64,000 nt of DNA from an uncultured Hormoscilla sp. (GCA_963921275.4 OZ001293.3:3808001-3872000), one strand, 5' to 3'; positions 26,422-56,579 are shown, numbered from the stretch's first letter. Translations and numbers: made by a program. Notes: generated by a model not told the origin, from the sequence alone.

Positions 26422-26451
26422 AAATCATAACAGCAAGAGAGGAAGACTACT

Positions 26452-27771
26452 ATGGGGATGACCCTTACCGAAAAAATTATCGCCCGGGCCTCCGGACGGG
26501 ACAGCGTAACTCCCGGCGAGAACGTCTGGGTGAATGTAGACGTACTCATGACCCACGATGTCTGCGGTCCGGGGACGATCGGGGTCTTCAAGCGGGAATT
26601 TGGCGCCGATGCCAAGGTCTGGGATAAAGAGAAAATCGTGATCATTCCCGACCACTACATCTTCACCGCTGACGAACGGGCCAACCGCAACGTTGACATT
26701 CTGCGCGACTTTGCCCAGGAACAAGAGATCAAATACTTTTACGACATCACAGACCGTGCCGACTTCAAAGCTAACCCCGATTATAAAGGAGTTTGCCACG
26801 TCGCCCTCGCCCAAGAAGGGCACACCCGTCCGGGGGAAGTCCTGTTTGGCACGGACTCCCACACCTGCAATGCGGGTGCTTTCGGACAATTTGCCACGGG
26901 TATTGGCAACACCGACGCCGCCTTTATCCTGGGTACGGGGAAGCTGCTGATTAAAGTCCCCGCTACCATGCGCTTTATCCTGGATGGGGAAATGCCCGAC
27001 TATCTGTTAGCAAAAGACCTGATCTTGCAAATTATCGGGGATATCACTGTTTCTGGTGCCAACTATCGGACATTGGAATTCTGCGGCGAAACCATCGAAC
27101 GGATGACGATGGAAGAACGCATGACTCTCTGTAATATGGCGATCGAGGCGGGGGGCAAGAATGCCACGATCGCCCCAGACGAAATCACCTTTGAATACGT
27201 CCGGGGGCGGACGAACAAATCCTTCGAGCCAGTATACACCGATGCCGATGCCAGTTTCTACAGCGAGCACCGCTACGATGTTTCCCATTTAGAACCCGTC
27301 GTCGCCAAACCCCACTCCCCGGACAACCGCGACTTGGCCAAAAATTGCCGGGATGTGAAGATCGATCGGGTATATATCGGTTCCTGCACGGGAGGCAAAA
27401 CCACGGACTTTCTGAATGCGGCGCGGGTTTTGAAAGGAAAACAGGTGAAAGTGCCCACCTACATAGTCCCAGCAACCCAGAAAGTCTACGAAGACCTGTT
27501 TACAGTGAAGCATGAAGGGCAAACAATTTCCGAGATTTTGTTAGCAGCAGGATGTATCGAACCCGCAGCGCCATCCTGTGCAGCATGTTTGGGCGGTCCC
27601 AAAGACACCTTTGGGCGGATGAACACAGCAGAAATCTGCGTTTCCACCACTAACCGCAACTTTCCCGGACGCATGGGCGAGAAAACTGCTCAAATTTATC
27701 TAGCATCACCATATACAGCAGCGGCATCTGCCCTGACTGGCTATGTCACCTCACCGAGGGAGTTCCTGTAG
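26452..27771 (+). CDS. leuC: 3-isopropylmalate dehydratase large subunit
   Basis: MTHDVCG, GTDSHTC, IGSCTGG, CAACLGG, STTNRNFPGRMG motifs; intact. Confidence 0.93.
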   Translation: MGMTLTEKIIARASGRDSVTPGENVWVNVDVLMTHDVCGPGTIGVFKREFGADAKVWDKEKIVIIPDHYIFTADERANRNVDILRDFAQEQEIKYFYDITDRADFKANPDYKGVCHVALAQEGHTRPGEVLFGTDSHTCNAGAFGQFATGIGNTDAAFILGTGKLLIKVPATMRFILDGEMPDYLLAKDLILQIIGDITVSGANYRTLEFCGETIERMTMEERMTLCNMAIEAGGKNATIAPDEITFEYVRGRTNKSFEPVYTDADASFYSEHRYDVSHLEPVVAKPHSPDNRDLAKNCRDVKIDRVYIGSCTGGKTTDFLNAARVLKGKQVKVPTYIVPATQKVYEDLFTVKHEGQTISEILLAAGCIEPAAPSCAACLGGPKDTFGRMNTAEICVSTTNRNFPGRMGEKTAQIYLASPYTAAASALTGYVTSPREFL

Positions 27772-36854: not shown

Positions 36855-37150
36855 ATTTTCACGCTCTAGAAGTGAAGATATCCAAAATTCTAGAACATGT
36901 ACGACAAATGAAAGCAACCATGACGCCTCAGCCGCTAGTGTCAGTGAACAGTTATCAGTTACCAGTTCTTTGGCATCAGTTCTAGATGTCCCACTGCGGG
37001 GCAGAGTAGTCAAAAATTAACAGCTGTACTAGTACAAAATCACCCCTGCATTTTCCCTCAAGAGGCAAATACAGCATCAAGTAGTTCCTCGATTTTTTTT
37101 AACCCTAATTGAATTTAACTCGGAACATTGCCTATCGGCCCTCATGGCTA

Positions 37151-38010
37151 GTCGCGGGAGCGTCATTAAATATATTGACAGTGGCAGGTAATTTTGTTAC
37201 TGTTACTATGGAAAGAATCTAAAATTACCTTGGATTACATAGGGCGATGGCAGTTGGGCAACTTGGGCCAAGCTGTACTCTTGTTTCCAGAATCTCGCGC
37301 TATGGCTGTGGGGGCTGCTATTACTATGGCCTCGAAGGGCGATCGCCGGCACCAATATAACTGGTCTGCCGATGGAGAGGCTCTCCGACTGCCGACTGTA
37401 CTGCCCGTTACCACCGACATGGTAGAATTGGCGGGCACGATGCCCTAGCCGAACGAGGGCCTTTGTGGTGGAGTGGCTTGTATAGGAGAATACGCCTGTG
37501 CTTGAGCAGAGATTGGTTACCATAATGGAAAAGACTTGTTTCAAGTAATCAAAAGCCAAGACGCTTCGTCAGGAATCCACGGCTCTCGGCTTGTAAACTG
37601 GACAGCGCCAGAAGCAACATACCTTTGGTGTTGCCTCGGAAATCTCGAAGATGCCAGCGCAGAGGGGAAGTCGCGGGAGCGCCATTAAAGATATTGACAG
37701 TGACAGGGAATTTTGTTACCATCGAAAGCATCTTAGCAGCACCACTCGCACCCCAAAGGGCGATCGCCAGCACCAATATAACTGGCCTGCCGATGGAGAG
37801 GCTCTCCGACTGCCGACTGTACTGCCCGTTACCACCGACATGGTAGAATTGGCGGGCACGATGCCCTAGCCGAACGAGGGCCTTTGTGGTGGAGTGGCTT
37901 GTATAGGAGAATACGCCTGTACTTGAGCAGAGATCGGTTACCATAATGGAAAAGACTTGTTTCAAGTAATCAAAAGCCAAGACGCTTCGTCAGGAATCCA
38001 CGGCTCTCGG
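37151..38010. repeat. tandem duplication, about 420-bp period, of unidentified degenerate sequence
   Basis: 37337-37590 is nearly identical to 37757-38010; 37151-37200 is similar to 37669-37719. Confidence 0.85.
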
Positions 38011-38017
38011 CAAAAGC

Positions 38018-39325: not shown

Positions 39326-42300
39326 ATGAATCAAACAAAATCAACATCATTACCCAAAAATATGATTCTGGCTAATAAAGAAGAAATATCACTGCCTTTG
39401 ACAGAGGCCCAAAAACAACTCTGGATTTTAGCTCAACTAGATAAAGAGAGTTCAATTGCCTATAACCAATCGATAAATGTACAAATGCGCGGTCCACTGA
39501 GATTGGAGGCGATGAAGCGGGCGATAGAAAAAATTGTCGATCGGCACGAGGCTTTACGGACGAAAATTTTGCCTTCAGGCGATGGACAACAGGTTGGTCG
39601 GGCGGAGGAAATAGAGCTGCCAGTACTGGACTTTTCCAATGAAGAGAGTAGCAGGCTCCTTGAGGGAGCGCAGGATTGGTTTGAAAAGGAGAACCGAACG
39701 ATTTTTGATTTGAATGCAGGACCGCCTTGGCGCATGCAAGTCCTGAAGCTGGAAGAACAGCTTCATTGGCTGGTGTTTAGCGCTCATCATATAGGACTAG
39801 ATTTGCAATCGATGTTCTGGATTCTCCAGGAATTAGGAGTTCTGTATTCATCTGAGTGTCAGGAAAAACAGGTGACATTACAGGAACCAAAGCAATTTCA
39901 AGAATATATAAACTGGCAAGTAGGGCAAAGCCAGACTGGGGAAATGGCAGAGCATGAAGCCTACTGGTTGGATAAATTGGCAGGGGAACTCCCGGGATTA
40001 AACCTGCCGACAGACTGGAATCGCCCGGGGAATAGAGATTTTAAGATAAACAAGGAAACTGTTCGGCTAGATGATGATGTAAGTCACAAACTGGAAATCT
40101 TTAGCAGCCAAAGAGGTGGGCGGGTTGGAACGACTCTGCTGGCAGTATATATGACATTGCTGCATCGACTGACAGGACAGTCAGATATTATAGTAGGATT
40201 GCCGACTTCCGGACGGTACTTTGAAGGAAGCGAAGAAGTGGTTGGCTGCTGTGGAGATCTGTTGCCAATCAGAAGTTTGCTGGAGAGCAACCCCACATTT
40301 TCAGACTATCTCCGACAGATCGAGAAGGTATGGTTGGCAGCAGAGGCACATAAAAATTATCCCTTCGCGAGATTGTCTGAGGGACTGAATCGTCAAAATA
40401 ACTCTAGGAACTCGCCTCTGATAACAACATTGTTTAGCTGGGAAAGGCCAGTTAGCGAGCCGCAGATGTGGAAACTGGAAACAGCTTTATATCCTCAACC
40501 TCTCGATTTTAAGGATTATGACTTGTATGGTAAAATCATCGAGTCCAAAGAGAACCAGTTAGCATTGGAGGTAAGTTATAGCACGCAGTTGTTAGCAGCC
40601 TCAACGATTAAACGCTGGTTGGGACATTTTACAACTCTGCTAGAGGCAATATTAGAAAATCCCGATCGGAAGCTCTCGGAATTACCGTTGCTTACCAGGG
40701 AAGAATCCCAGCGGTTGTTAGTCGAATGGAATGACACGGAGTCGGATTATCCAGCGGATAAATGCGTTCATCAATTGTTTGAAGAACAGGTGCAGCTCCG
40801 GCCGGATGCCGTGGCAGTGGTGCTGGGAAACAAGCAACTGACTTATTCGGATTTAAATGACCGGAGCAATCAGCTGGCGCGTTACTTGGAAACTCTGGGT
40901 GTGGGACCAGAGGCGCTGGTGGGAGTTTGTGTAGAACGTTCTTTGGAAACGATCGTGGGGATGCTGGGAATTCTTAAAGCTGGGGGGGCTTATGTCCCCC
41001 TGGATCCCAGTTATCCTCAAGAACGTTTGGCATATATGTTGCATGATTCGGGGCTGAAGGTGCTTCTGACGCAGGATAAGTTTGTTAATTCATTGCCAGA
41101 ATATCATCACAAGCTGGTTTGTTTGGATGGAGATTGGGGAGTAATTGAGAAATACAGCAAGGAAAATAAAGAAACAGATGTAAAACCAAATAATCTGGCT
41201 TATGTAATATATACGTCAGGGTCTACAGGGAAACCAAAGGGTGTATTAAGTGCGCACCCGGGACTGTGCAATCTGGCATGGGCCTTCAAGAATATATTTA
41301 ATGTCGGACCAGAAGCTCGTCTTCTTCAGTTTGCTTCTTTAAGCTTTGATGCCTCAGTAGAAGAGATTTTTACGGCTGTCACATCGGGAGCGAGATTGGT
41401 TCTAGGAACAAAAGATAGTTTACTCTTAGGACATAATTTGCTACAGTTGTTGCGGGAACAGGGGGTTACTCACGCGACAATAGGACCGGCGGCTTTAGCA
41501 GTGTTGCCTCCAGAAAAATTGCCATGCTTAAATGTATTGATTGTGGCTGGAGAGGCGATATCTAGCGAGGTGGTCAGGAAATGGTCTTCGGGACGACAAT
41601 TTTTTAACGCTTACGGTCCTACTGAAGCGACTGTTTGTGCTACGGTAGCTGAGGTTGCCGATGCTAGCCAAAAGCCGCCGATCGGTCGCCCCATTCCTAA
41701 TGCTAAGGTTTACATCCTTGACGAACATCTGCAACCGGTACCGATCGGCGTGCCTGGGGAACTTCATATTGGTGGAGTTGGGTTATCTAGGGGCTATCTT
41801 AATCGTCCGGAGTTGACGGATAAAAAATTCATTCCTAACCCTTTTAGTGACGAGAAAGGATCGCGCCTCTACAAAACAGGAGACTTAGCTCGTTACCGAG
41901 AGGATGGTAATATCGAATTTATCGGCAGGATAGACTACCAAGTAAAAATTCGCGGTTACCGGATAGAACTGGGAGAAATTGAAGCATTGTTAAGCCGTAA
42001 CCCGGAAGTGCGGGAAGCGGTGGTGATTCAGAGGGAGGACCAACCGGGCGATCGGCGTCTAGTAGCTTATGTGGTCCCAGAAGATGATAACCGAGAGGTG
42101 GCGCGAGCAGATGATAATGAAACTGCTGTCGAACTCTGGCCTTCTGTGGCGGAATACTACGTATATGATGAATTGTTGTATTACGCCATGACCAACGATG
42201 AGCGCCGCAATCAGAGCTATCAAGTGGCTATTAACCAGTCGGTCAAGGATAAGGTGGTGGTCGAAATTGGCACGGGAAAAGATGCGATTTTAGCAAGGTT

Positions 42301-43687
42301 TTGTACGGAGGCGGGAGCCAAAAAAATCTATGCGATCGAGCGAGATGCCAAAACGGCTCAGCTGGCGGAAACTTGCGTTGCCGATCTGGGGTTGTCCGAG
42401 AAAATACAGGTTGTGGTTGGAGATGCAACTGAGTTAGTATTGCCGGAATTGGCAGATGTGTGCGTTTCAGAAATTGTCGGCTCGATCGGGGGTTCTGAAG
42501 GGGCAGCTGTGATTATCAATGATTCCCGGCGGTTGCTCAAACCAGGTGGGGGAATGATTCCCGAAAGAAGCGTGACGAAGATTGCTGCCGTGACTCTCCC
42601 CGATGAAATTTTGCAGCATCCCAAATTCACGAATATATCCGGGCATTATACCGATAAGATTTTCGAGCAAGTCGGATATAGCTTTGACTTGAGGGTCTGT
42701 ATTAAACGGTTCCCGAAGTCAAATGTGCTGTCAAACGTGCAAGTGTTTGAAGATTTAGACTTCACGCAACCAGTTGTTTTAGAAGAATCCCATGAAGTGG
42801 AGTTTGAGATCTTACAGTCGGGAAGGTTAGATGGCTTCCTGGTTTGGCTCAACCTGCATACGGTGAAGGGAGAGGAGATAGATATTCTGGAACACGAGCA
42901 TTGCTGGCTGCCAATTTACTTTCCCGTTTTCGAGCCGGGAATATCGGTGTCCAAAGGCGATCTCATACAGGGAATTTGCCAAAGAACCCTTTGCGACAAT
43001 CAGCTAAATCCTGATTATGCAATTAAAGGGGAATTGCTAAAAAGCGATGGAGAAGTGATAGAATTTGAACATATTTCTTATCACTACAAAAAAAGATTCA
43101 AGCAAAGTCCGTTTTATCAGCGGTTGTTTGCGGAGGGTGCGGGGACGGAAAACAATGGAGGTCAGGAGTCAAAAGCAAAATTTGTCAAAAGTATCAGAGA
43201 ATATATACGGAAGCATCTGCCTGAGTATATGGTGCCAGCGGCTTTGGTGGTAATGGCAAGTTTGCCTCTGACGCCTAATAATAAGGTAAACCGCAAGGCT
43301 CTCCCAGCTCCGGATACTACGGGGATATCTGATGCCGATTATGTCAAGCCTAATTCGGGGATGGAAAAAAATATTGCTGAGGTGTGGCAAGACGTGCTGA
43401 AGATCGAAAAAGTAGGAATTTATGACAACTTTTTTGAATTGGGCGGAAATTCTTTACTGCTAGTGAAGGTTTACAATCAATTGCTGCAAATAGATTCATT
43501 GTCACAAAAGCCGTCGATGGTAGAGTTGTTTAAGTATCCAACGATATCGACTTTGGCTAAGCAGATGAGCGGTAAAATTAAAGAGTCGGCGGCCAAGCCG
43601 GTTTATGGAGAGGCCCGTGGGGCAGCGCGGGAGGCGATGCAGCAACAACGTCAGCTCAGACAAAGACATCGTTCTAGGAAAAAATAG
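39326..43687 (+). CDS. NRPS module C-A(MT-interrupted)-T
   Basis: C HHIGLD; A YTSGSTGKPKG, YGPTE and YKTGDL; SAM methyltransferase at about 42128-43135 between the A8 and A9 motifs; T FFELGGNSL. Confidence 0.93.
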   Translation: MNQTKSTSLPKNMILANKEEISLPLTEAQKQLWILAQLDKESSIAYNQSINVQMRGPLRLEAMKRAIEKIVDRHEALRTKILPSGDGQQVGRAEEIELPVLDFSNEESSRLLEGAQDWFEKENRTIFDLNAGPPWRMQVLKLEEQLHWLVFSAHHIGLDLQSMFWILQELGVLYSSECQEKQVTLQEPKQFQEYINWQVGQSQTGEMAEHEAYWLDKLAGELPGLNLPTDWNRPGNRDFKINKETVRLDDDVSHKLEIFSSQRGGRVGTTLLAVYMTLLHRLTGQSDIIVGLPTSGRYFEGSEEVVGCCGDLLPIRSLLESNPTFSDYLRQIEKVWLAAEAHKNYPFARLSEGLNRQNNSRNSPLITTLFSWERPVSEPQMWKLETALYPQPLDFKDYDLYGKIIESKENQLALEVSYSTQLLAASTIKRWLGHFTTLLEAILENPDRKLSELPLLTREESQRLLVEWNDTESDYPADKCVHQLFEEQVQLRPDAVAVVLGNKQLTYSDLNDRSNQLARYLETLGVGPEALVGVCVERSLETIVGMLGILKAGGAYVPLDPSYPQERLAYMLHDSGLKVLLTQDKFVNSLPEYHHKLVCLDGDWGVIEKYSKENKETDVKPNNLAYVIYTSGSTGKPKGVLSAHPGLCNLAWAFKNIFNVGPEARLLQFASLSFDASVEEIFTAVTSGARLVLGTKDSLLLGHNLLQLLREQGVTHATIGPAALAVLPPEKLPCLNVLIVAGEAISSEVVRKWSSGRQFFNAYGPTEATVCATVAEVADASQKPPIGRPIPNAKVYILDEHLQPVPIGVPGELHIGGVGLSRGYLNRPELTDKKFIPNPFSDEKGSRLYKTGDLARYREDGNIEFIGRIDYQVKIRGYRIELGEIEALLSRNPEVREAVVIQREDQPGDRRLVAYVVPEDDNREVARADDNETAVELWPSVAEYYVYDELLYYAMTNDERRNQSYQVAINQSVKDKVVVEIGTGKDAILARFCTEAGAKKIYAIERDAKTAQLAETCVADLGLSEKIQVVVGDATELVLPELADVCVSEIVGSIGGSEGAAVIINDSRRLLKPGGGMIPERSVTKIAAVTLPDEILQHPKFTNISGHYTDKIFEQVGYSFDLRVCIKRFPKSNVLSNVQVFEDLDFTQPVVLEESHEVEFEILQSGRLDGFLVWLNLHTVKGEEIDILEHEHCWLPIYFPVFEPGISVSKGDLIQGICQRTLCDNQLNPDYAIKGELLKSDGEVIEFEHISYHYKKRFKQSPFYQRLFAEGAGTENNGGQESKAKFVKSIREYIRKHLPEYMVPAALVVMASLPLTPNNKVNRKALPAPDTTGISDADYVKPNSGMEKNIAEVWQDVLKIEKVGIYDNFFELGGNSLLLVKVYNQLLQIDSLSQKPSMVELFKYPTISTLAKQMSGKIKESAAKPVYGEARGAAREAMQQQRQLRQRHRSRKK

Positions 43688-43912
43688 CACAGGTAGCCGG
43701 TATTGCCAGCAAGTAAAGTGTATTGCTGGCAAGTCAGTGGTCATGTTCTGGTAGAACCGGGAAAAATTGAGTAAAAATACGGATGGACAGGTTCGCAAGA
43801 GGATGAGAAGAATAGATGATGCAAACAGAGGATGAGCGGAGAATGAATAATCAGGAAATAGCGGCGATCGCCATGTCAGGTCATTGGCCAGGGGCCAAAA
43901 ATGTAGAAGAAT
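43663..43912 (+). repeat. direct repeat of the NRPS end / PKS start (second copy about 46512-46770)
   Basis: AGACATCGTTCTAGGAAAAAATAG...GTAGAAGAATA present twice. Confidence 0.9.
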
Positions 43913-44133
43913 AATTCCCGAACCCTTTGGCAGGCAGATCCAGGGAACGAATCCCACCCAGAAACCAGGTAATTTCGGCGAAACCTGGTTTCTTAATTCT
44001 GGCATTTAGAAAATATTCTTATATCATGTCTGGGGAATTACCCTCAATTAAGAAGCGACTCTCACCTTCTAGAGGATCTCGCGTTACCGTGCGATCGGGC
44101 TAAGTTGTCACCTCTTCTCTGTCATATCAATCG

Positions 44134-46090: not shown

Positions 46091-46310
46091 ATGCTTCAAG
46101 ACTTGGATAAAACATTAGAAGAACTGCTTAAAAACGAATTACCACCTCCGGTGATATCCCCCCCGGATGGGAAGTCAGTCACGATTAGTTTTTCAACTCC
46201 TGACAAAGATTTTGCTACCAGAGTTGAGCTGCCAGCAATAGACCTGTTCCTCTATAACGTGCGGGAAAACATGGAATTGCGGACTGCCCCCTGGTCAGTG
46301 GAACGGTCCA
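46091..46310 (+). pseudogene. DUF4255 (Afp16/Pvc16-like contractile injection system cap protein) N-terminal fragment
   Basis: MLQDLDKTLEELL...ISFSTPD...PAIDLFLYNVRENMELR; fused to duplicated PKS sequence. Confidence 0.75.
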
Positions 46311-46511
46311 AGGCAGAACCTGATATCGGGTGTAGAATCGATTTCTAGGTTTTCAGATGAGGAGTTGTTAGCTGAAGGTGTCAAGCCGGAATTGTTGAGT
46401 AACGATGATTACGTTAGAGCCGGGGGAGTGCTGTCAGACATTGATCTGTTTGATGCCAGTTTCTTGTGAGTCCTAGCGAAGCGAAGCTAATGGATCCCCA
46501 GCGATGTTCTT
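46311..46511 (+). repeat. degenerate duplicate of PKS 5' coding sequence (about 46773-46981)
   Basis: GGCAGAACCTGATATCGGG...GATGTTCTT with small deletions. Confidence 0.9.
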
Positions 46512-46672
46512 AGACATCGTTCTAGGAAAAAATAGCACAGGTAGCCGGTATTGCCAGCAAGTAAAGTGTATTGCTGGCAAGTCAGTGGTCATGTTCTGGT
46601 ATAACCGGGAAAAATTGAGTAAAAATACGGATGGAGAGAGTGGACAGGTTCGCAAGAGGATGAGAAGAATAG

Positions 46673-49600
46673 ATGATGCAAACAGAGGATGAGCGGAGAA
46701 TGAATAATCAGGAAATAGCGGCGATCGCCATGTCATGTCGTTTGCCAGGGGCAAAAAATGTAGAAGAATATTGGCAGAACCTGATATCGGGTGTAGAATC
46801 GATTTCTAGGTTTTCAGATGAGGAGTTGTTAGCTGAAGGTGTCAAGCCGGAATTGTTGAGTAACGATGATTACGTTAGAGCCGGGGGAGTGCTGTCAGAC
46901 ATTGATCTGTTTGATGCCAGTTTCTTTGGCATGAGTCCTAGCGAAGCGAAGCTAATGGATCCCCAGCAGCGCATGTTCTTAGAATGTGCATGGGAGGCAA
47001 TAGAACAGGCGGGTTATAACCCAGACATATATGATGGTCTAATAGGTGTATATGCAGGGATAGGAATAAATACATATTTAATTAACAATATTTACCAAAA
47101 TCAGGAGATAATGAAGTTGGTGAATCTGCATCAATTGGTGACAGCCAATGATAAGGATTATTTGCCGACCAGAGTATCATACAAGCTGAACCTGAAGGGG
47201 CCAAGTATAAACGTGAATACGGCATGTTCAACTTCATTGGTAGCGGTTCACTTGGCTTGTCAAAGTTTGTTGAATGGTGAATGTGACATGGCTTTGGTAG
47301 GTGGAGTGTCAGCGAGAATTCCTCACAAAGTAGGTCACCTGTACGAAGAAGGAATGATATTATCACCAGATGGACATTGTCGAGCTTTTGATGCGGGTGC
47401 AAAAGGGACAGTAGGGGGAAATGGAGTAGGAATAGTGGTCCTGAAACGATTGTCAGATGCGATCGCGGAAGGAGACGCAATCCATGGGATAATCAAAGGT
47501 TCAGCTATTAATAATGATGGTTCGTTGAAAATCGGATATACTGCTCCTAGCATAGATGGTCAAGCGGCGGTGATTGCTGAAGCCCAAGCAGTAGCGGGGG
47601 TAGAACCAGAAACGATTAGTTATATAGAAGCACATGGGACGGGAACGGAATTGGGAGACCCCATTGAAATCGCAGCACTGAAGCAGGCTTTTGCAAAGAA
47701 GAAGGATAAGAAAAACTTCTGCGCGATCGGGTCAGTAAAAACAAATATCGGTCATACTGATGCGGCATCTGGGGTGGCTAGCTTAATTAAAACGGTGCTA
47801 GCGCTGAAGCACGAAGTTATCCCTCCGAGCTTGCATTTTAACAAGCCAAATCCTAAGATTGATTTTGCAAACAGTCCTTTTTATGTAAATGCCGAACTAT
47901 CGGAATGGAAAAGCAATGGGGTGCCCCGTCGTGCAGGAGTTAGCTCTTTTGGAATTGGCGGGACTAATGCTCACATAATATTAGAAGAAGCCCCGCCGGT
48001 AGAAGCATCAGGAGCATCCCGACAAGCGCAAATTATGGTAATGTCAGCGAAGACAAGCACGGCCCTAGATCGGATGAGCGAAAATCTCGCTGTCTATTTA
48101 GAGCAAAACCCAGAAGTTAAGATCGCCGACGTGGCATATACTCTGGGGGTGAGTCGCAAGGAATTTAACTACAGACGGATGCTGGTTTGTCGGCAGGGCG
48201 AGGAGGCGGCGCGGACCCTAAGAGCATTAGATGGACAGCAAGTTTTCACCAATAGGATCGAAGATCGAGAGCGACCGGTTGTATTTATGTTTTCCGGACA
48301 AGGGGCTCAGTATGTAAATATGGGCCTGGGGATATATAAAAGTGAATCGGTTTTTGCAGAGCAAGTAGACCGCTGTGCGGAATTACTTTGGCCAGAATTA
48401 GGACTGGATCTGCGCCAGCTCCTTTATCCGACTGCTGAAAAGGCGGAGGCGGCTGTTTCACAACTGCAAGAAACGAAAATAGCACAAATAGCGATATTTG
48501 TTATCGAGTATGCCTTGGTACAGCTATGGCGCGAGTGGGGAATAGAACCAGAAGCGGCGATCGGCCATAGTATAGGGGAATATGTGGCAGCATGTATAGC
48601 AGGAGTTTTCTCCTTAGAAGATGCCTTGTCTTTGCTGGTGGCGCGAGGCCAGTTGATGCAGTCAATGGCCAAGGGGGCGATGCTTTCCATTCCGCTGCCA
48701 AAAGCAGAAGTGCAAGGGAGATTGGGAACTGAACTATCATTAGCAACAATTAACAGTCCATCTCGTTGCGTAGTTTCGGGTCCAGATGCAGCAGTGGCGG
48801 CTTTGGAAAAACAACTAGCATCGGAAAATATTCAAAGTCGTCGCCTGCACACTTCCCATGCTTTCCATTCCCAAATGATGGACCCGATGTTAGCAGAATT
48901 TGCAGGGCGGGTAAAGCAAGTTACTCTCCATCCTCCGGAAATTCCCTACATATCTAACCTGACTGGCACCTGGATAAGGGTAACCCAGGCGACAGATCCC
49001 AACTATTGGGTACAGCATTTGCGTCAAACGGTGCTGTTTGCACCGGGTTTGGAAAATTTATTGTCGGACCCCGATCGAGTCTTGCTGGAAGTAGGTCCGG
49101 GACGAACCTTGAGTACCTTGGCGAAAAGACATCCCGATAAGTCTGCCTCCCAGTTGGTCCTCACCTCCCTGCGCCATCCTCAAGAAGAATTGGCAGATCT
49201 GGATTTTCTGCTCGCCACTTTGGGCAATTTATGGTTAGCTGGAGTTAAGGTGGACTGGTTGGGATTCTACAGCCAGCAGCGACGCCATCGCTTGCCCTTG
49301 CCTACCTATCCCTTCGAACGCCAGCGTTACTGGATTTCACCTCAAAAGCAGCTTGAAAAAGTTGTTGACAGTAAGACAGAGGCAGGAAAAAAGCAAGATA
49401 TTGCCGATTGGTTTTACATGCCGACTTGGAACCGGTCCCTACTGGGGGCTGGCAGGAAATTGCCCGATCGCACTCTCCTGTTTATTGATGAGTATGGTAT
49501 AGGTTCTGAACTGGCAAGTAAGCTGCGATCGCAAGGTAAAGAGGCGATCAGGGTGAAGATGGGGGAATCCTTTGCGGAACTGGGCGAGGACCTGTATAGT

Positions 49601-51610
49601 ATCAATCCCAGGGAACCCAAGGACTACGAGACATTGTTCGCGGAACTACCGGAAATTCCCCAGACAATCGGACATATATGGAGTATGGTAGCCGACTACC
49701 AGCCATGCGGCTGGAAAGGAATTGAAGGGGCCCTAGATCGAGGCTTTTACAGTCTGCTGTTCCTGGTGCAAGCATTGGAGAAACAGAACTTAAATGGCGA
49801 GTTTCAACTGGCAGTCATCTCTAATGGGTTGCAAAATGTGACCGGACAGGAACGGTTGCTTCCGGAACAGGCCACGCTCATAGGACCGGTTAAAACTATC
49901 CCCCAGGAATGCCCTACCATTAACTGTAGGAGTATTGATATCGAAATTCCGACAACCAGCAACGGTCATTCAAGGGAAATGATAGAGCAATTGATGGCGG
50001 AGTTGGGCGCGAACTCCTCAGATGAGGCGATCGCCTATCGCGGACAGCATCGTTGGGTGCAAAGCTATGCACCCATACCCCTGTTAGATCCAGCAAATGA
50101 GGGGATCCAGCGATTAATGCCAGGTGGGGTATATATAATAACGGGGGGACTGGGAGGTATAGGACTGGTATTAGCAGAATATCTGGCTCAAACAGTCCAG
50201 GCCAAGCTGGTTCTAATTGGGCGATCGGCTTTTCCAGCGCGAAATCGCTGGTCGGAGTGGTTGGCCAGTCACGATAGGGGCGATCGCATCAGCAGCAAAA
50301 TTCATAAATTGCAAGCACTGGAAAAACTGGGAGCCCAGGTGTTATCATTATCGGCAGATGTTGCTGATTTCCAGCAGATGCAAAAGGCGATCGAGGGTGC
50401 AGAGCAGCATTTTGGTAAAGTTAACGGGGTCATCCACGCAGCTGGTCGGCCTGGTGGGGGCTTAATTCAGCAGAAAACCAGAGAAATTGCTGAAAAAGTT
50501 ATGGCTCCCAAGGTCAGGGGGACTCTCATTCTGGACGCCCTCCTCCAAGACAGACAGCTAGACTTCTTTGTTGTGGCATCTTCTCTAAATGCCGTTATTC
50601 CCGTCTTAGGTCAAGTTGACTATTGTGCTGCCAATGCTTTTCTGGACGCTTTCGCTCAGTATAGGACCGCAAAGGGGGCCTTTACCGTATCGATCGACTG
50701 GGATGCCTGGCAGGAAGTGGGGATGGCAGTGGATGCTGCCGAAAAATCACTTCTCACTGGCCCCAAACAAATTTCCCACCCACTATTCTCACGGGTCATG
50801 GTAGAGTCTGACGCGAGGCAGATATATATATCAAATCTAGGCGTCAGTCAAAACTGGCTGTTGCAGGAACATATAGTCATGGGGCAAGCAACAATGCCTG
50901 GGACTGGATACTTAGAAATAGTCAGGGCAGCTTGGGCAAAGATGACCCAGAAAGAAACAGCAGAACTGCGGGAAGTATTTTTCTTGAGTCCTTTAACTGT
51001 CAAAGCAGATGAAAACAAGGAAGTGAAGACGATTTTCACGAAAGCGGGAGATGGCTGGGAATTTGAGGTGGTAAGCTCGTTGAAGGGGCAATCAGAGCGA
51101 TGGCAGAAGCATTGTGAGGGAGAAATTTTTAGCCTAGATGTGGGCGATCGCGAGCAACTGGCTATTGAGGAAATAGAAGCAAAATGTCCAGAAGCAAAAC
51201 CAATTCCCGCCCCAGGGCAGGAACCCCAAGCAGGATTAATAGAATTTGGCCCCAGATGGGACAATGTCAAATGGGTAAAGTTTGGCGAAAATGAGGGATT
51301 GGCATTTCTGGAACTGCCGGAAAAGTTTATGGCTGACATCAAAGACTATAAATTACACCCAGCCTTATTAGATACGGGTACCGGTTTCATGGGATTGAAA
51401 AATATAGATGGCGCCTACCTGCCCTTTGGTTATAAAAAAGTCAAGGTCAAAGGACCGATACCAGCAAAAGCCTACAGCTATATAAGGCAAAACGCGCAAG
51501 ATGGGAAAGCGTCCAGTTTGAAAATGAATGTTACCATCGCAGACGAGATGGGAGAGGTGATGGTGGAGATAGAAGATTATACTCTGAGGCAGATAGAGCC
51601 AAGTAACTGA
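46673..51610 (+). CDS. type I PKS KS-AT(malonyl)-KR-DH, no ACP
   Basis: KS NTACSTS, HGTGT, KTNIGH; AT GHSIG and HAFH; KR GGLGGIG and YCAAN; DH HIVMGQATMP and HPALLD. Start may be 46700. Confidence 0.93.
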   Translation: MMQTEDERRMNNQEIAAIAMSCRLPGAKNVEEYWQNLISGVESISRFSDEELLAEGVKPELLSNDDYVRAGGVLSDIDLFDASFFGMSPSEAKLMDPQQRMFLECAWEAIEQAGYNPDIYDGLIGVYAGIGINTYLINNIYQNQEIMKLVNLHQLVTANDKDYLPTRVSYKLNLKGPSINVNTACSTSLVAVHLACQSLLNGECDMALVGGVSARIPHKVGHLYEEGMILSPDGHCRAFDAGAKGTVGGNGVGIVVLKRLSDAIAEGDAIHGIIKGSAINNDGSLKIGYTAPSIDGQAAVIAEAQAVAGVEPETISYIEAHGTGTELGDPIEIAALKQAFAKKKDKKNFCAIGSVKTNIGHTDAASGVASLIKTVLALKHEVIPPSLHFNKPNPKIDFANSPFYVNAELSEWKSNGVPRRAGVSSFGIGGTNAHIILEEAPPVEASGASRQAQIMVMSAKTSTALDRMSENLAVYLEQNPEVKIADVAYTLGVSRKEFNYRRMLVCRQGEEAARTLRALDGQQVFTNRIEDRERPVVFMFSGQGAQYVNMGLGIYKSESVFAEQVDRCAELLWPELGLDLRQLLYPTAEKAEAAVSQLQETKIAQIAIFVIEYALVQLWREWGIEPEAAIGHSIGEYVAACIAGVFSLEDALSLLVARGQLMQSMAKGAMLSIPLPKAEVQGRLGTELSLATINSPSRCVVSGPDAAVAALEKQLASENIQSRRLHTSHAFHSQMMDPMLAEFAGRVKQVTLHPPEIPYISNLTGTWIRVTQATDPNYWVQHLRQTVLFAPGLENLLSDPDRVLLEVGPGRTLSTLAKRHPDKSASQLVLTSLRHPQEELADLDFLLATLGNLWLAGVKVDWLGFYSQQRRHRLPLPTYPFERQRYWISPQKQLEKVVDSKTEAGKKQDIADWFYMPTWNRSLLGAGRKLPDRTLLFIDEYGIGSELASKLRSQGKEAIRVKMGESFAELGEDLYSINPREPKDYETLFAELPEIPQTIGHIWSMVADYQPCGWKGIEGALDRGFYSLLFLVQALEKQNLNGEFQLAVISNGLQNVTGQERLLPEQATLIGPVKTIPQECPTINCRSIDIEIPTTSNGHSREMIEQLMAELGANSSDEAIAYRGQHRWVQSYAPIPLLDPANEGIQRLMPGGVYIITGGLGGIGLVLAEYLAQTVQAKLVLIGRSAFPARNRWSEWLASHDRGDRISSKIHKLQALEKLGAQVLSLSADVADFQQMQKAIEGAEQHFGKVNGVIHAAGRPGGGLIQQKTREIAEKVMAPKVRGTLILDALLQDRQLDFFVVASSLNAVIPVLGQVDYCAANAFLDAFAQYRTAKGAFTVSIDWDAWQEVGMAVDAAEKSLLTGPKQISHPLFSRVMVESDARQIYISNLGVSQNWLLQEHIVMGQATMPGTGYLEIVRAAWAKMTQKETAELREVFFLSPLTVKADENKEVKTIFTKAGDGWEFEVVSSLKGQSERWQKHCEGEIFSLDVGDREQLAIEEIEAKCPEAKPIPAPGQEPQAGLIEFGPRWDNVKWVKFGENEGLAFLELPEKFMADIKDYKLHPALLDTGTGFMGLKNIDGAYLPFGYKKVKVKGPIPAKAYSYIRQNAQDGKASSLKMNVTIADEMGEVMVEIEDYTLRQIEPSN

Positions 51611-51713
51611 GTTAGGCGGGTTACGTGGAGCGTCTGCCAGTCAGGTGGAAGGTTACGTCGGGCGGGCGGATCGCCTGCCAGTCAGGTGGCGACAAGCAAG
51701 TTAAGGTGCAAAT

Positions 51714-53309
51714 ATGATAGCGCTCGAAGCAAAAACAGAAAAGAAACAGCTGTCAGAGGAAAGCGAAAACAGTTGTCTAGAAATTTCGGTCATTGGGTTA
51801 CTAGAAACTCTCAAATTTCAGTCAGTTCCCCGGGAGGAACCAGGGAGCGGGGAAGTAGAAATAGAGGTGCTAGCAGCGGGTCTGAATTTCAAAGATGTAC
51901 TCAGAGCATTGGGAATGATGCCAGTAGAACCGGGGGTACCGGTAAGATTTGGCTTGGAATGCGCTGGCAAGATAGTTAGGCTAGGAGATGGAGTTGCAGG
52001 ATTTGAGATTGGAGATGAAGTAATAGCCTTTGGTTCCAACTGTTTTAGTAGGTATATAACAAGTTCAACTTCATTGCTCGTTCCCAAACCCAAGTCCCTC
52101 AGCCTAGAAGCAGCGGCAACAATACCAGTAGCATTTATGACTGCTTACTATGGCTTGATTGAATTGGCAAGACTGAGAGCAGGAGAGCGAGTTCTCATTC
52201 ATGCTGCCACAGGAGGGGTGGGCATGGCAGCGGTACAGGTGGCCAAGTGGGTGGGAGCAGAAATTTTTGCAACCGCAGGCAACCCGGAAAAACGGGCATT
52301 TTTGCGCGGACAGGGAATAGAATATATTATGGATTCCCGGTCCCTGGATTTTGCAGATGAAGTGATGCAATACACCCAGTCAAGAGGTGTAGATGTAATA
52401 TTGAACTCCTTGGCAGGAGAATTTATTGCCAAGAACTTTGAGGTTATGGCTGACTTCGGACGCTTTGTAGAAATAGGGATGCGGGATATATACAGTAATA
52501 GTCAAGTTGGTCTGGAACCATTTCAGAAAGGCTTGTCATTTTTTGCCCTATTAGTAGGGCCAGAACTGCCCAAATTTAGTCAAATTTTTCGAGAACTGGC
52601 AGCAGGATTTGAAGAAGGCAGCTTTAATCCCCTACCGCTGAAGGTTTTCTCGGCAACAGAGATTGATGAGGCTTTTAGCTACATGGCGCGGGCCAAGCAT
52701 ATTGGAAAAATAGTTGTGTGTTTCCCAGGACTAGAGGAACACAAACAAAAAAATGAGTCTTATGTGACCTGGGTCACTTTTCGCAGACAAGAACGCCATC
52801 AAGAAAGAAACCTGTCTGTAGGAATCAGGTCCCAAGAAGGGGTAGAAGCTTTTCGACGAATTTTGAGCAATAGCCTGCCCCAGGTGGTAGTCTCGACAGC
52901 AGATTTGACCGCGCGACTCAAGCAAGCGAAGACGAAGGTGGGAGGCATTTTTCTACAAGAATCACAACCAGCAGCAGCATCAGTCAGCCATTCCCCCCGC
53001 CCCCAACTGCATAACGCTTATCTAGCCCCTAGTACGCCCACGGAGGAAAAGGTGGCGAAAATATGGCAAGATTATTTGGCGATCGACCAAGTAGGGATTC
53101 ACGATAACTTTTTAGATTTAGGTGGTGATTCTTTGCTAGCTACCCAAGTGATTGCGAGATTGCGGGAAGTGTTTGCGGTAAAATTATCTTTGGCGAGTTT
53201 GTTGGAAACCCCAACTGTGGCCCAGATTGCTAGTGATATAGAAGGGATGATTGCTACTGGACGCGGGCAGAAAGCGGAACAGACAGATAGAGAAGAAATA
53301 GAAATATAA
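51714..53309 (+). CDS. PKS ER - KR C-terminal segment - carrier protein
   Basis: ER AGLNFKD, VLIHAATGGVGMAA, AKHIGKIV; GIRSQEGVEAFRRIL..PQVVVST (KR tail); FLDLGGDSL. Confidence 0.9.
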   Translation: MIALEAKTEKKQLSEESENSCLEISVIGLLETLKFQSVPREEPGSGEVEIEVLAAGLNFKDVLRALGMMPVEPGVPVRFGLECAGKIVRLGDGVAGFEIGDEVIAFGSNCFSRYITSSTSLLVPKPKSLSLEAAATIPVAFMTAYYGLIELARLRAGERVLIHAATGGVGMAAVQVAKWVGAEIFATAGNPEKRAFLRGQGIEYIMDSRSLDFADEVMQYTQSRGVDVILNSLAGEFIAKNFEVMADFGRFVEIGMRDIYSNSQVGLEPFQKGLSFFALLVGPELPKFSQIFRELAAGFEEGSFNPLPLKVFSATEIDEAFSYMARAKHIGKIVVCFPGLEEHKQKNESYVTWVTFRRQERHQERNLSVGIRSQEGVEAFRRILSNSLPQVVVSTADLTARLKQAKTKVGGIFLQESQPAAASVSHSPRPQLHNAYLAPSTPTEEKVAKIWQDYLAIDQVGIHDNFLDLGGDSLLATQVIARLREVFAVKLSLASLLETPTVAQIASDIEGMIATGRGQKAEQTDREEIEI

Positions 53310-53311
53310 CA

Positions 53312-54946
53312 ATGAAAAGTAGTTCTGATTTTTTATCGCACTTGGCATCGCAGGACATCCAAGTCTGGGCGGAAGGAGATCGCCTGCGTTGCAATGCGCC
53401 CAAGGGAGTGCTAACATCAGAGTTACGCTCTGAATTAACAGCTCGCAAGCAAGAAATGCTGGCCTATTTGCAGCAAAAAACAGAAGAGCCGAAGATTAGT
53501 AGGGTCTCCCGCAGTCAAGAAATCCCGCTATCCTGGACTCAGCAACGACTTTGGTTTCTAGATCGACTAGAAGGAGGAAGTAGTGCTGCTTATAATTTGT
53601 CAACGGCTTTAGAAATAAAAGGGCCATTAAATGTCAAGGCCCTAGAAAAGACATTGGCGGAAATGATAAGGCGTCACGAAACATTGCGGACCACTTTCCA
53701 GTTGGTAAATGGGACAGCAGTACAGGCGATCGAGACTCAGGTTTCCCTGGCATTACCGATAAGAGACTTACAGGAGTTGTCTGCAGAGGAAAAAAATGTG
53801 GAAGTGCGCAGGTTAGCGATCGCGGAAATTTCGCGGCCTTTCGATCTGGCCAAGGGACCGGTAATCAGAAATATATTGTTACGACTGGGAAAAACATCCC
53901 ACGTGCTGCTTTCTACCATCCATCATATTGTCTTTGATGGCTGGTCAACAGTAATATTCATTAAAGAATTGTCGAGTTTATATCAAGCCTTTGTCAAGGG
54001 CTTGCCTTCACCTTTGCCAGAGTTGCAGATCCAATATGCAGATTTTGCGGTCTGGCAGCGGGAGTGGCTGAAGGAGGATATCTTAAAACCTCAAATAGAG
54101 TACTGGAAAGAAAAACTAGCTTCAGCACCGCAATTATTGGCATTGCCAACCGATCGCCCCCGTCCTCAAATAGATAGCATGGGAGGAGATAGCGAGACAT
54201 TTAAGCTAAATAGTCAGATAATGGCAAAACTCAAAAATCTGACCAAGCAGTCTGGCTCAACTCTGTATATGATTTTGTTGGCAGCTTTCGCCACCTTACT
54301 CTATCGTTACAGCTCTCAAACAGACATCACGATCGGTTCCCCGATCGGAAACCGTTACCCGCAGGAGACGGAACCGCTAATTGGATTATTTATCAATACC
54401 CTGGTATTGCGGACAGAGATGAGTGAAAATCCTAGTTTTCTGGAACTGTTAAAACGGGTGCGCCAAGTAACCTTAGAAGCATACGAAAATCAGCACGTGC
54501 CCTTTGAGAAGTTGGTAGAGGAACTGAAGATCGAAAGAAACTTGAGTCGGAACCCGTTGTTTCAGGTATGGTACACTCTGCAAGATACGACAGTGGAAGG
54601 CTTGGAATTAACTGGTTTAGAAGTGCGGCCACTGGAATTTGAGAATCCCACGGCGATTTTCGATCTCGAATTAATTCTGGAATATATACCATCAGGTCTC
54701 AAAGGCCAGTTGAGATATAAAACAGATTTATTCGATCGGGCGACAATAGCGCAAATGGTTCGACATTTCCAGACATTGCTGGAAAGTATAGTGGCAGCTC
54801 CAGAACAGCAGCTGAATAATTTAAGACTCTTGACAGATGAAGAAACAGGAGGTTATACTATAGAAGACTTCTCAGAGGCGGATTTCAGCCCCCAGGAGTT
54901 CGAGAAGTTGATGATGGAAATTGGCAAGATAGCCGTGTCTTTGTAA
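53312..54946 (+). CDS. stand-alone condensation protein with TubC-type N-terminal docking domain
   Basis: IQVWAEGDRLRCNAPKGVLT; LSWTQQRLWFL; HHIVFDG; COM-like acidic tail. Confidence 0.9.
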   Translation: MKSSSDFLSHLASQDIQVWAEGDRLRCNAPKGVLTSELRSELTARKQEMLAYLQQKTEEPKISRVSRSQEIPLSWTQQRLWFLDRLEGGSSAAYNLSTALEIKGPLNVKALEKTLAEMIRRHETLRTTFQLVNGTAVQAIETQVSLALPIRDLQELSAEEKNVEVRRLAIAEISRPFDLAKGPVIRNILLRLGKTSHVLLSTIHHIVFDGWSTVIFIKELSSLYQAFVKGLPSPLPELQIQYADFAVWQREWLKEDILKPQIEYWKEKLASAPQLLALPTDRPRPQIDSMGGDSETFKLNSQIMAKLKNLTKQSGSTLYMILLAAFATLLYRYSSQTDITIGSPIGNRYPQETEPLIGLFINTLVLRTEMSENPSFLELLKRVRQVTLEAYENQHVPFEKLVEELKIERNLSRNPLFQVWYTLQDTTVEGLELTGLEVRPLEFENPTAIFDLELILEYIPSGLKGQLRYKTDLFDRATIAQMVRHFQTLLESIVAAPEQQLNNLRLLTDEETGGYTIEDFSEADFSPQEFEKLMMEIGKIAVSL

Positions 54947-54980: not shown

Positions 54981-56579
54981 ATGAGTAAGGAGAAAGTATA
55001 TCTGAAACAAAACGTGCAAGCAGAGCCATTATTCAATCAATGGTATGCTTGGCCTTACTTGATAGCGCCAGCGACGGCGGCCATGTATATGGTGAACTCG
55101 TACTTCAAGATTATGGAATCATTCGTGGCAGCGCCGCAATTCCACGTTTCTGCTTTGCAAAATCCGAAAATGAAAGGGGGTCCGTTCATAAACTACGATG
55201 CTAGTAGAGCGCCAGAAATTAAGGCGCTGCTGGAAAAAACACAAGCAGAGCAAGAAGAACTGGTAGAGTTGGCAGCAGGACTGAAAGAATTGCATTTATT
55301 ATTAATGGAGGAAGCCAAAGGATATTCAATCGAGCCTCTGTATAAAAAAGTACCAGAAGTTTTGAAAGGTTATGTGGAACTGAGTTACGATCTGAACAAT
55401 CAACCGTCAGTTCGTTTGATAGAAGGATTATTGTACAGGAGTAAGTATTATAAAAAGTCATCTCAAAGCCTGTCCCTATCTTTGGTGGAACGAGACGATC
55501 GCCCGTTTATATTCAGTAGCCCCAGGCTAGAAGATGAAAAAAGTTTGCGTCTGCATACTCATTTCCATCATCAAGGGTTAGATGAGTTGTTCAAAATGAA
55601 ACAAATTCCTCAACCATTAGGTTTGATTGAGGAAGTCCTAGATATTAAGAACGGAGATCGGGGAAGTTTGTGGAAATCATTTTTTACAGAGGAAGCGCCA
55701 TCACCACTGAAGAAATATACAGAGGAACCGGTAAGGGTGCGTTATTTCGGTCATGCTTGCATTTTAATTGAATCAAAAGACATCAGCATTTTGTGCGATC
55801 CGCTGATTAGCTATAAGTATGATGGCGGAATTACTCGTTACACCTATGCAGATTTACCAGAAGTAATAGATTATATTTTAATTACCCACCAGCACCACGA
55901 TCACTGTATGTTGGAAACTTTGCTACAGCTGCGCCATAAAACGAAAACCGCGATCGTACCTAAAAATAATGGAGGTGAATTGGCAGATCCGTCGATGAAA
56001 TTGCTGTTGCAGAATATGGGTTTTCAGCAAGTAAAAGAGATTGAAGAAATGGAAACAATAGAGGTAGAAGGTGGCGGGATTACAGGTTTGCCTTTTTTGG
56101 GCGAACATGCAGATCTGAAGATTAGAACAAAAACAGCTTATTCGATTAATTTGCAAGATAAGACGATCGTGGTGGGAGCAGATTCAACAAATTGTGAATC
56201 CCAGCTTTATGATAAGATCGGGGAAGCTATGGGAAAAGTTGATATAGTCTTTTTGGGAGTCCAATGTGATGGCGCGCCATTAAGCTGGGCTTATGGAGGT
56301 TTGTTAATTAAACCATTAGCACGAAAAATGGACCATTCGCGGAAATCAAGTGGTTGTGACTACGAAAAGGCGATCGCCTTAATAGAGAGTTTGCATCCGA
56401 ACGAAGTATACGTGTATGCAATGGGGTACGAACCGTGGTTGAGTTATCTGATGTCTTTTGAAAATTACCAAGAGAGTCGCTCCTTTGCAGAGGCAAATAA
56501 ATTAGTATCGGAGTGTCAGAGTCGCGGGATAATATCGGAGAGATTGTTTGGGCAAAAAGAATTATATTTAAACAAATAG
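54981..56579 (+). CDS. CmlA-type MBL-fold diiron beta-hydroxylase
   Basis: VYLKQNVQAEPLFNQWYAW, GGPFI, VELSYDL, RYFGHAC, THQHHDH, PFLGEHADL and YVYAMG motifs; 532 aa. Confidence 0.85.
   Translation: MSKEKVYLKQNVQAEPLFNQWYAWPYLIAPATAAMYMVNSYFKIMESFVAAPQFHVSALQNPKMKGGPFINYDASRAPEIKALLEKTQAEQEELVELAAGLKELHLLLMEEAKGYSIEPLYKKVPEVLKGYVELSYDLNNQPSVRLIEGLLYRSKYYKKSSQSLSLSLVERDDRPFIFSSPRLEDEKSLRLHTHFHHQGLDELFKMKQIPQPLGLIEEVLDIKNGDRGSLWKSFFTEEAPSPLKKYTEEPVRVRYFGHACILIESKDISILCDPLISYKYDGGITRYTYADLPEVIDYILITHQHHDHCMLETLLQLRHKTKTAIVPKNNGGELADPSMKLLLQNMGFQQVKEIEEMETIEVEGGGITGLPFLGEHADLKIRTKTAYSINLQDKTIVVGADSTNCESQLYDKIGEAMGKVDIVFLGVQCDGAPLSWAYGGLLIKPLARKMDHSRKSSGCDYEKAIALIESLHPNEVYVYAMGYEPWLSYLMSFENYQESRSFAEANKLVSECQSRGIISERLFGQKELYLNK

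Follow-up and report, generated by a model that had tools for sequence, protein, structure and literature searches.

The first gene of a hybrid cluster of nonribosomal peptide synthetases (NRPSs) and polyketide synthases (PKSs) in an uncultured Hormoscilla sp. encodes a module that probably makes O-methyltyrosine, by means of an O-methyltransferase with the fold of protein arginine methyltransferases (PRMTs) embedded in its adenylation (A) domain. We hold this reading with moderate confidence. The cluster lies in a 64,000-nucleotide stretch of DNA (GCA_963921275.4 OZ001293.3:3808001-3872000), hereafter the window, and the gene in question (39326..43687, plus strand, 1453 amino acids) comprises, according to the open reading frame (ORF) list, the translation and Pfam, one C-A(MT)-T module of condensation (C), A, methyltransferase (MT) and thiolation (T) domains, followed by a basic tail at the C terminus. 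The analyses below establish the domain order, the PRMT fold, the membership of the MT in the type III class of M domains and the specificity code DAETIAAVCK. The sole unusual feature of the module appears to be a rare glutamate in the substrate pocket, at the position numbered 239 in GrsA (Glu239).

An adenylation domain interrupted by a PRMT-fold methyltransferase

The initial annotation of this DNA had described an A domain interrupted by a PRMT-like MT, and Pfam, motif searches, PDB matches and a predicted model all bear this out. The N-terminal part of the A domain through motif a8 (40778..42100, plus strand, residues 485-925) is covered by PF00501 and positions 1-40 of PF13193, and its PDB matches by phmmer are LgrA, ApnA A1, McyB and GrsA. 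The core motifs located by motif search on the plus strand are A3 at 41210, A4 (FDASVEE) at 41345-41365, A5 at 41606, A7 at 41870 and A8 at 41924-41983 (residues 867-886). Pfam AMP-binding occupies residues 485-825, and since AMP-binding_C (residues 884-924) is matched over profile positions 1-40 of 76 only, this subdomain is evidently interrupted by the insert. As A8, the boundary sequence RLVAYVVPE (residues 911-919), A9 (LPEYMVP, residues 1298-1304) and A10 (residues 1317-1326) flank the MT, some 360 residues have been inserted between a8 and a9 (42113..43195, plus strand, residues ~930-1290). The A domain is otherwise complete around the insert, its remainder (43196..43330, plus strand) carrying, by motif search, A9 at 43217-43237 and A10 (PNNKVNRKAL, with the code lysine K1320) at 43274-43303. 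The interval first given for the interrupted domain, 41200..43135, is right in starting at the A3 motif, but its end falls inside the MT barrel, the insert extending to ~43195 and A9/A10 to 43303.

Compared with PDB by phmmer, the MT region found CARM1 as its top match (E 8.8e-18), followed by PRMT6, 7, 8, 2, 1, 3 and 9; LgrA and BmdB, which are not PRMTs, cover the A-domain tail only (query 369-407) and thus also match the A-domain remainder. In the phmmer alignment the helix motif YYAMTNDERRNQSYQVAI (42179-42232, plus strand, residues 952-969) lies on the N-terminal helix motif of CARM1, and E1049 and E1058 of the double-E loop SEIVGSIGGSE (42467-42499, plus strand, residues 1048-1058) fall on the two Glu of SEPMGYMLFNE in CARM1. 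With a profile built from 39 relatives, the E-values against PDB improved to 1e-32..1e-21 and the match extended through the barrel, where the family's ..sW aligned on the THW of Arabidopsis PRMT4.2 and mouse PRMT6. The HCW of the window (42899-42907, plus strand, residues 1192-1194; HCW/WLPIYFPV together 42899-42928) therefore corresponds to T-H-W, with H1192 on T, C1193 on H and W1194 on W, so that the His of the THW loop proper is replaced by Cys. These three hallmarks had been picked out beforehand; the strings are present and align on CARM1 and other PRMTs. In addition, Pfam PRMT5 (PF05185) matches residues 943-1072 with 26.7 bits against a curated cut-off of 22.9.

An AlphaFold2 model of residues 930-1300 had a mean predicted local distance difference test score of 92.4 and a predicted template-modelling (TM) score of 0.87. 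The comparison of such a model with PRMTs had been proposed at the outset, and in a Foldseek search against PDB all rows among the matches listed were PRMTs (PRMT6, CARM1, PRMT2; E ~1e-25). As these matches span 323-373 aligned columns (TM 0.62-0.76, 20-23% identity), the beta-barrel half is PRMT-like too, and the model predicts a full PRMT fold, i.e. a Rossmann domain binding S-adenosylmethionine (SAM) followed by the PRMT beta-barrel. The MT and the type I PRMTs (CARM1/PRMT4, PRMT6, PRMT2) have both domains in common over ~340 columns, and they also agree in the helix motif near the N terminus, in the two Glu of the double-E loop and in the Trp of the THW loop. The MT differs from them in sequence (20-23% identical), in its Cys for the THW His and in its location inside an NRPS A domain; going by the family to which it belongs, its substrate would be a carrier-bound phenol, not protein arginine. 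The class of PKS O-methyltransferases represented by StiD/StiE or LynB2 was considered and rejected, since no such structure was among the PDB matches of the MT, all of which are PRMTs.

The methyltransferase as a type III M domain

Passages of Lundy et al. 2020 (PMC8341866) describe a type III M domain of interrupted A domains, Ms(O,Tyr,a8-a9), which is 350 +/- 10 in length and recognised by four motifs; the representatives named there, ThxA2, DidJ and VatN, belong to families 2b and 5b, and their products contain O-methyl- or N,O-dimethyl-Tyr. The insertion point after L(V/A/I)(A/G)(Y/F)xxx given in those passages (PMC8341866) is found in the window as RLVAYVVPE, and the four motifs given there can be followed in turn. 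Motif i, V(V/L)(E/D)(I/V)GxGxxA, reads VVEIGTGKDA within the SAM motif VVVEIGTGKDA (42254-42286, plus strand, residues 977-987, motif search); motif ii, GD.xx.x(L/I)PEx(A/V)(D/E)xC(V/I)SEI(V/I/F)GxI, is present as GDATELVLPELADVCVSEIVGSI at residues 1032-1054; and motif iii, (I/V)FxxxxxxFDLR, is, like the first two, matched exactly by IFEQVGYSFDLR (42659-42694, plus strand, residues 1112-1123). Motif iv, WLPV(F/Y)(F/L)P, occurs as WLPIYFPV at residues 1194-1201, with Ile for Val in a column that is Val in 94% of 82 Tyr-type relatives.

For the phylogeny, the MT region was cut from 241 proteins, of which 203 with at least 85% coverage were retained and 38 dropped; the named type III representatives were represented by VatN (P0022), DidJ and ThxA2 not being included. 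FastTree on the 203 rows placed the window next to P0002 (99% identical) and, with P0003 (DASIIAAVC), P0004 (DAWTIAAVC) and P0122, in a five-row clade (support 100), nested in a 48-row clade with VatN (support 98). A quick IQ-TREE run on 67 rows chosen from the 203 gave a 22-row clade (SH-aLRT 96) holding the window, VatN, 17 Tyr/Phe-like codes, two other codes and no code of the Arg-like DVE type. The initial annotation had proposed that the module loads a phenylalanine with a basic para group, and had itself named clustering of the MT with Tyr O-methyltransferases as one half of a test that could overturn the idea; the MT clusters with VatN, which speaks against it.

The window MT is at consensus in all columns at least 90% conserved among the 82 Tyr-type MTs, apart from four positions at the alignment edge and two substitutions, V1030 for a consensus I and I1197 for a consensus V. 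Its identity to VatN is 61% over the A domain and 67% over the MT, and to P0003 72% over the C domain, 83% over A and 86% over MT. Judged by motifs and tree, we assign the MT to the type III M domains and its host to the family 2b interrupted A domains. As far as the type III members ThxA2, DidJ, VatN and LynB3-OMT are described in the passages cited here, they share with the window the a8-a9 insertion point, the four motifs, about the same length and a PRMT-like fold, and VatN in addition stands in the same clade. Unlike them, the window has Glu, not Ser, at 239 of the partner A domain and Ile for Val in motif iv; unlike VatN, DidJ and LynB3, it has a single M domain without a back-to-back N-methyltransferase.

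The MT had at first been singled out as unusual for an NRPS, a view contradicted by the match to all four type III motifs. The PRMT likeness of the class is already in print too, since an excerpt from Kudo and co-workers (PMC10127204) states that LynB3-OMT, which is assigned to Tyr O-methylation, resembles arginine side-chain N-methyltransferases (~30% similarity). Thus, a PRMT inside an NRPS looks exotic from the raw sequence, yet on these published descriptions the MT is no new kind of NRPS methyltransferase and belongs to a described and widespread domain class. Indeed, 606 proteins of 799-2543 amino acids among 4999 candidates match the MT region, and a library of 50%-identity representatives holds 616 MT matches at E <= 1e-30 and 6078 at E <= 1e-3.

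The specificity code and Glu239

The A domain was read in the register of GrsA PheA (1AMU), where the phmmer matches run from query 2-447 to chain 34-479 and from query 17-181 to chain 266-430 with the same offset in both. The spans are of equal length, as an ungapped register would give, and on this basis, together with the core motifs, the window residue was taken as the GrsA number + 440. With this offset D235 coincides with the D of FDAS, and 321-327 with NAYGPTE. Read in this way, the ten residues of the code are D675, A676, E679, T718, I739, A741, A762, V770, C771 and K1320, i.e. DAETIAAVCK, identical to the code read by hand in the initial annotation. That annotation had also named the absence of Glu from position 239 as grounds for abandoning its proposal, and the equal-span register places E679 there. 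Glu679 (codon GAA, 41360..41362, plus strand) lies at the bottom of the substrate pocket.

Nine of the ten code positions are those of the Tyr code DASTIAAVCK, including the remaining eight variable ones, and DASTIAAVCK is the commonest code beside this MT (24 of the 121 NRPSs from the MT-region protein search, plus six with the tenth position unaligned). The Phe code DAWTIAAVCK is likewise identical at nine of ten positions; the window differs from it and from the Tyr code in having Glu239 rather than Trp (Phe-type) or Ser (Tyr-type). Across a shell of 34 pocket positions, the window differs from its Ser239 orthologue in Microcoleus (L001) at 213, 214, 239 and 243 only. The pocket is otherwise of the aromatic type, and the evidence favours one that binds a phenol.

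Among the 121 NRPSs, residue 239 is Ser in 57, Glu in 18, Ala in 14, Thr in 8, Asn in 5, Trp in 3, Gly and Phe in 2 each, and Tyr and Val in 1 each, with 10 unaligned; the 18 Glu are 16 DVE-type codes, the window and P0002. The latter, a separate record 98-99% identical to the window, carries the same Glu, so Glu239 is not a read error. The code DAETIAAVCK occurred in none of 63 genome loci in a search that covered relatives only (best match 84% identity). A word search with a 41-residue query from the A4 region among proteins of 799-2543 amino acids gave 357 candidates, and the best 120 of 132 matches listed hold no second DAETIAAVC pocket besides P0002. Glu239 in this pocket is therefore real and rare, seen only in the window and P0002 among the sequences searched.

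At this position the orthologues have TCG for Ser (Microcoleus L001) or TGG for Trp (Microcoleus L002, L003 and L021, Tolypothrix L005). Between L001 and L002, L003 and L021, a single nucleotide separates Ser (TCG) from Trp (TGG), with the remaining pocket-shell residues identical and the MT intact, a natural toggle between Tyr-type and Phe-type. Residue 239 thus switches among Ser, Trp and Glu within one cluster family in which the MT and the remaining pocket are conserved, a natural experiment on tuning by the pocket-floor residue that is relevant to A-domain engineering.

Basic and amino-aromatic substrates

Glu239 is a hallmark of Arg/Lys-type codes, and it could open the pocket to a basic residue such as Arg, homoarginine or Lys, with or without Tyr as a second substrate; the MT would then N-methylate the guanidino or amino group. 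All 16 DVE codes beside this MT family have Glu239, the MT retains the PRMT fold and both Glu, and of the 83 E239 motif matches among those listed in the A4-region search (a few domains counted twice), 74 are of the ..E..G.. kind with Gly301 (DAEDIGTVV, DAELIGTVV etc.); the nine without Gly301 are DAETCAGVI (six) and three singletons. The basic-residue pocket pattern, however, combines Glu239 with a polar or acidic residue at 278 and Gly301, whereas the window has E239, T278 and A301 in the whole aromatic set TIAAVC. Its MT is, moreover, of the Tyr-partnered kind: it stands at consensus in the highly conserved columns, is 82-86% identical to the MTs of orthologues with Ser or Trp at 239, and lies apart from the DVE-partnered MTs, which fall in other tree clades. 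Cys occupies the middle of the THW position in the window, as it does in 75 of 83 MTs partnered by Tyr/Phe-like codes; none of the 16 MTs partnered by DVE codes has it there. We consider a basic residue very unlikely.

ApnA A1 bears on both sides of this question. According to Table 2 of PMC5311044, the anabaenopeptins made by ApnA A1 genotypes DVESIGAIAK and DVESIGVIAK contain Arg as well as Tyr, which makes Arg/Tyr bispecificity with Glu239 conceivable; for the same reason an acidic pocket floor is compatible with Tyr. ApnA A1 (PDB 4D4G) is a strong relative of the window A domain (E 3e-132) and, going by that account, sets Glu239 alongside Tyr incorporation. It differs in its codes, DVE(D/S)IG..(E/A)K, in Gly301 and in having no embedded MT, the window having A236, T278, A301 and C331.

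The original proposal, in which phenylalanine with a basic para group (4-amino-, amidino- or guanidino-Phe) is loaded and N-methylated, could draw on an aromatic-type pocket with an acidic floor, on the PRMT fold and on the presence in the cluster of a hydroxylase of the CmlA family; CmlA itself acts on tethered 4-amino-Phe. It had also taken the double-E loop as a sign of a guanidinium or other basic para group. This argument falls away, because 82 of 83 MTs beside Tyr/Phe-like codes have both Glu, as do 15 of 16 beside DVE codes; the loop is uninformative on substrate and cannot serve as a sign of a basic one in this MT class. The MT itself is indistinguishable from the phenol-partnered kind, and an aniline nitrogen is hardly basic at physiological pH. 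Nor were the precursor pathway genes that had been anticipated found: Pfam detected no PapABC-type genes for 4-amino-Phe, i.e. no aminodeoxychorismate (ADC) synthase, aminodeoxychorismate mutase or aminodeoxyprephenate dehydrogenase, among 35 window ORFs or in the flanks of L001 and L005, in a cluster that continues past 64000. The chance that this proposal is right seems slim.

Taken more broadly, the suggestion that Glu239 represents a natural retuning of a Tyr pocket, either to the para-amino side chain of 4-amino-Phe or to a basic one in a pocket accepting Arg as well as Tyr, with N-methylation by the PRMT-fold domain, strikes us as improbable, and there is no support for a basic or amino-aromatic substrate. 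If such a retuning were true, the module would be an intermediate between the phenol-O-methylating type III M domains and their Arg-coded DVE relatives (16 of 121).

These relatives are worth noting in their own right. Arg-like codes (DVEDLGCIS, DVEDIGAIT, DVENIGAIT and similar) stand beside the PRMT-fold MT in P0048-P0050, P0052, P0057-P0060, P0064, P0066, P0067, P0081, P0083, P0096, P0114 and P0115, and in loci L031, L036 and L040. Their MTs read YSW (nine), CNW (two), CSW (two), SNW, NNW and FNW (one each) at the THW position, and one of the proteins, P0049, has the architecture FAAL-ACP-C-A(MT)-T. The Arg-coded members may be true NRPS-embedded guanidino-N-methyltransferases, and they merit attention as such; a literature search for methylarginine in an NRPS context yielded nothing on the DVE group.

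O-methylation of a phenol as the preferred reading

O-methyltyrosine, which the initial annotation had kept as its conservative alternative, is the reading best supported by the motifs, the tree, the MT marker residue and the code. In this scheme the A domain would adenylate L-tyrosine or a close phenolic analogue and load it onto the carrier domain, and the embedded SAM-dependent MT would then act on the para-hydroxyl of the carrier-bound residue, methylation on the carrier being proposed from the example of other interrupted A domains. The C domain would join the residue to an upstream acyl or peptidyl donor, and the chain would be handed to the adjacent PKS. At the pocket floor Glu239 stands where the orthologues have Ser or Trp, and it would accept a hydrogen bond from the phenol and sharpen the choice of Tyr over Phe. 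Tyrosyl-tRNA synthetase likewise binds the Tyr hydroxyl with an acidic side chain. We infer that such a hydrogen bond, disfavouring Phe, is the most likely role of Glu239.

Several points weigh against O-methyltyrosine. Passages of Lundy et al. 2020 (PMC8341866) indicate that type III O-methylation was inferred from natural-product structures, not from enzyme assays. Five orthologues (P0004, L002, L003, L021 and L005) pair the Phe-type code DAWTIAAVCK with an intact MT, so the rule that the MT needs a para-hydroxyl is insecure in the cluster family, and the 16 of 121 relatives with Arg-like codes mean that the MT family is not restricted to phenols. The GAA codon differs from both TCG and TGG at all three codon positions, and this three-nucleotide change, also present in P0002, suggests selection for a new specificity more than it does drift. 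Neither DAETIAAVCK nor its seven-letter variants was matched in full-text literature, a search that did not extend to the supplements where codes often stand; as the exact code is absent from the searched proteins, loci and literature text, it is tied to no product. Finally, Pfam identifies a CmlA-like beta-hydroxylase as part of the cluster. It is because of the selected-looking change, the Trp239 orthologues with MT and the hydroxylase that our confidence in O-methyltyrosine is no more than moderate.

Alternatively, the pocket could pick a different phenolic residue or another aromatic with a para hydrogen-bond donor (homotyrosine, DOPA, a 3-substituted Tyr or beta-hydroxy-Tyr), with the MT O-methylating the para-hydroxyl or, in concert with the CmlA-like hydroxylase, a beta-hydroxyl. 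Glu239 is unique to the window lineage among the sequences searched, the cluster includes the hydroxylase gene, which in four Microcoleus loci is the immediate neighbour of the orthologous NRPS gene, and the Trp239 orthologues retain the MT though a Phe-type code offers no para-hydroxyl. Against this, the relatives characterised by product (VatN, DidJ, ThxA2 and LynB3) all point, as far as the published passages cited above go, to para-O-methyl-Tyr, the hydroxylase gene of the window adjoins a second NRPS gene that itself has an aromatic-looking code (DSALIAEVW), and the window ORFs scanned showed no genes of a homotyrosine pathway. Another phenolic substrate is unlikely, though we take it seriously.

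It is also conceivable that Glu239 is damaging or neutral in a decaying cluster and the module weak or inactive. A 2.85-kb repeat-rich, ORF-poor insertion with duplicated junctions separates the NRPS from its PKS partner, mobile elements lie upstream, and the A10 sequence of the window, P0002 and P0003 (NNKVNR) departs from the NGK(V/I)DR of P0005, P0006, P0022 and P0040. The insertion lies between genes, not within one, and the frame of 1453 codons is open, with A3, A4, A5, A7, A8, A9, the A10 lysine, the T-domain serine and the His-His-Asp of the C domain intact. P0002, furthermore, retains the same code at 98-99% identity, and the MT is at consensus. We therefore give decay very little weight and retain O-methyltyrosine as the probable product of the module.

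The gene cluster and its surroundings

The NRPS gene opens the hybrid cluster, which continues past the window end at 64000. Its C domain (PF00668, Pfam E 1.9e-89) lies at 39392..40720 (plus strand, residues 23-465, HHIGLD at 154-159) and its T domain (PF00550, FFELGGNSL) at 43373..43561 (plus strand, residues 1350-1412). As to the A10 motif PNNKVNRKAL between them, NNKVNR is common to P0002 and P0003, P0004 has NGKVNR, and P0005, P0006, P0022 and P0040 have NGK(V/I)DR; the code lysine is retained in the window.

Downstream on the plus strand, Pfam recognises a PKS with KS-AT-KR-DH (46673-51610), a second PKS ORF with ER-ACP (51714-53309), a C domain with TubC docking (53312-54946), the CmlA-like diiron beta-hydroxylase (54981-56579), and two NRPS genes whose codes read DSALIAEVW (NRPS2, 56666-61213) and DAFFLGVTF (61226 to beyond 64000). 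The PKS encoded at 46673..53309 is likely to accept the module product. Its domain order, KS-AT-KR-DH and then ER-ACP on the next ORF, contrasts with the usual KS-AT-DH-ER-KR-ACP, and NRPS2 starts with ~430 residues of a second C-like region ahead of its A domain.

The same pairing of NRPS and PKS is found in the four Microcoleus loci, in a different arrangement, with identities of 75% for the MT-containing NRPS, 78-79% for the PKS, 76-77% for CmlA and 71-73% for NRPS2. The Tolypothrix locus has only the MT-containing NRPS gene (75.5% identity). Upstream of 39326 are housekeeping and mobile genes, and Pfam showed no aromatic-amine pathway there among the window ORFs scanned.

The ORF-poor, repeat-rich 2.85 kb between the NRPS stop (43687) and the PKS start (46673) contains internal repeats at 311-483-nt spacing and a Pvc16_N fragment ORF (46091-46348). 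Sequence 43664-43924 recurs at 46512-46781 with 94-98% identity, and part of the PKS 5' end has been duplicated upstream, since 46312-46465 equals 46773-46926 (100%). A 261-nt direct repeat upstream of the cluster (37330-37590 and 37751-38011, 98% identity) gives, within 37150-38011, two near-identical minus-strand ORFs without a Pfam match. The mobile elements farther upstream (20052-27771) include a DDE transposase (20052-20876) and a group II intron reverse transcriptase/maturase (24664-26001), beside which an ORF at 26452-27771 covers part of the aconitase profile only.

The MT also occurs outside interrupted A domains. Stand-alone versions of ~430 amino acids with an N-terminal TubC docking domain (P0123-P0136) are present in Nostoc, Tolypothrix and Komarekiella, and remoter stand-alone relatives in actinomycetes (P0215, P0216 and P0228), one of which is annotated as protein arginine N-methyltransferase 1. 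Further copies belong to proteins that start with a phenylalanine ammonia-lyase domain or lie within PKS modules (P0044, P0051, P0082, P0088; P0046, P0047, P0073). The A-like domain beside the phenylalanine ammonia-lyase is not an amino-acid A domain, as its code positions read CFNFFAGPF.

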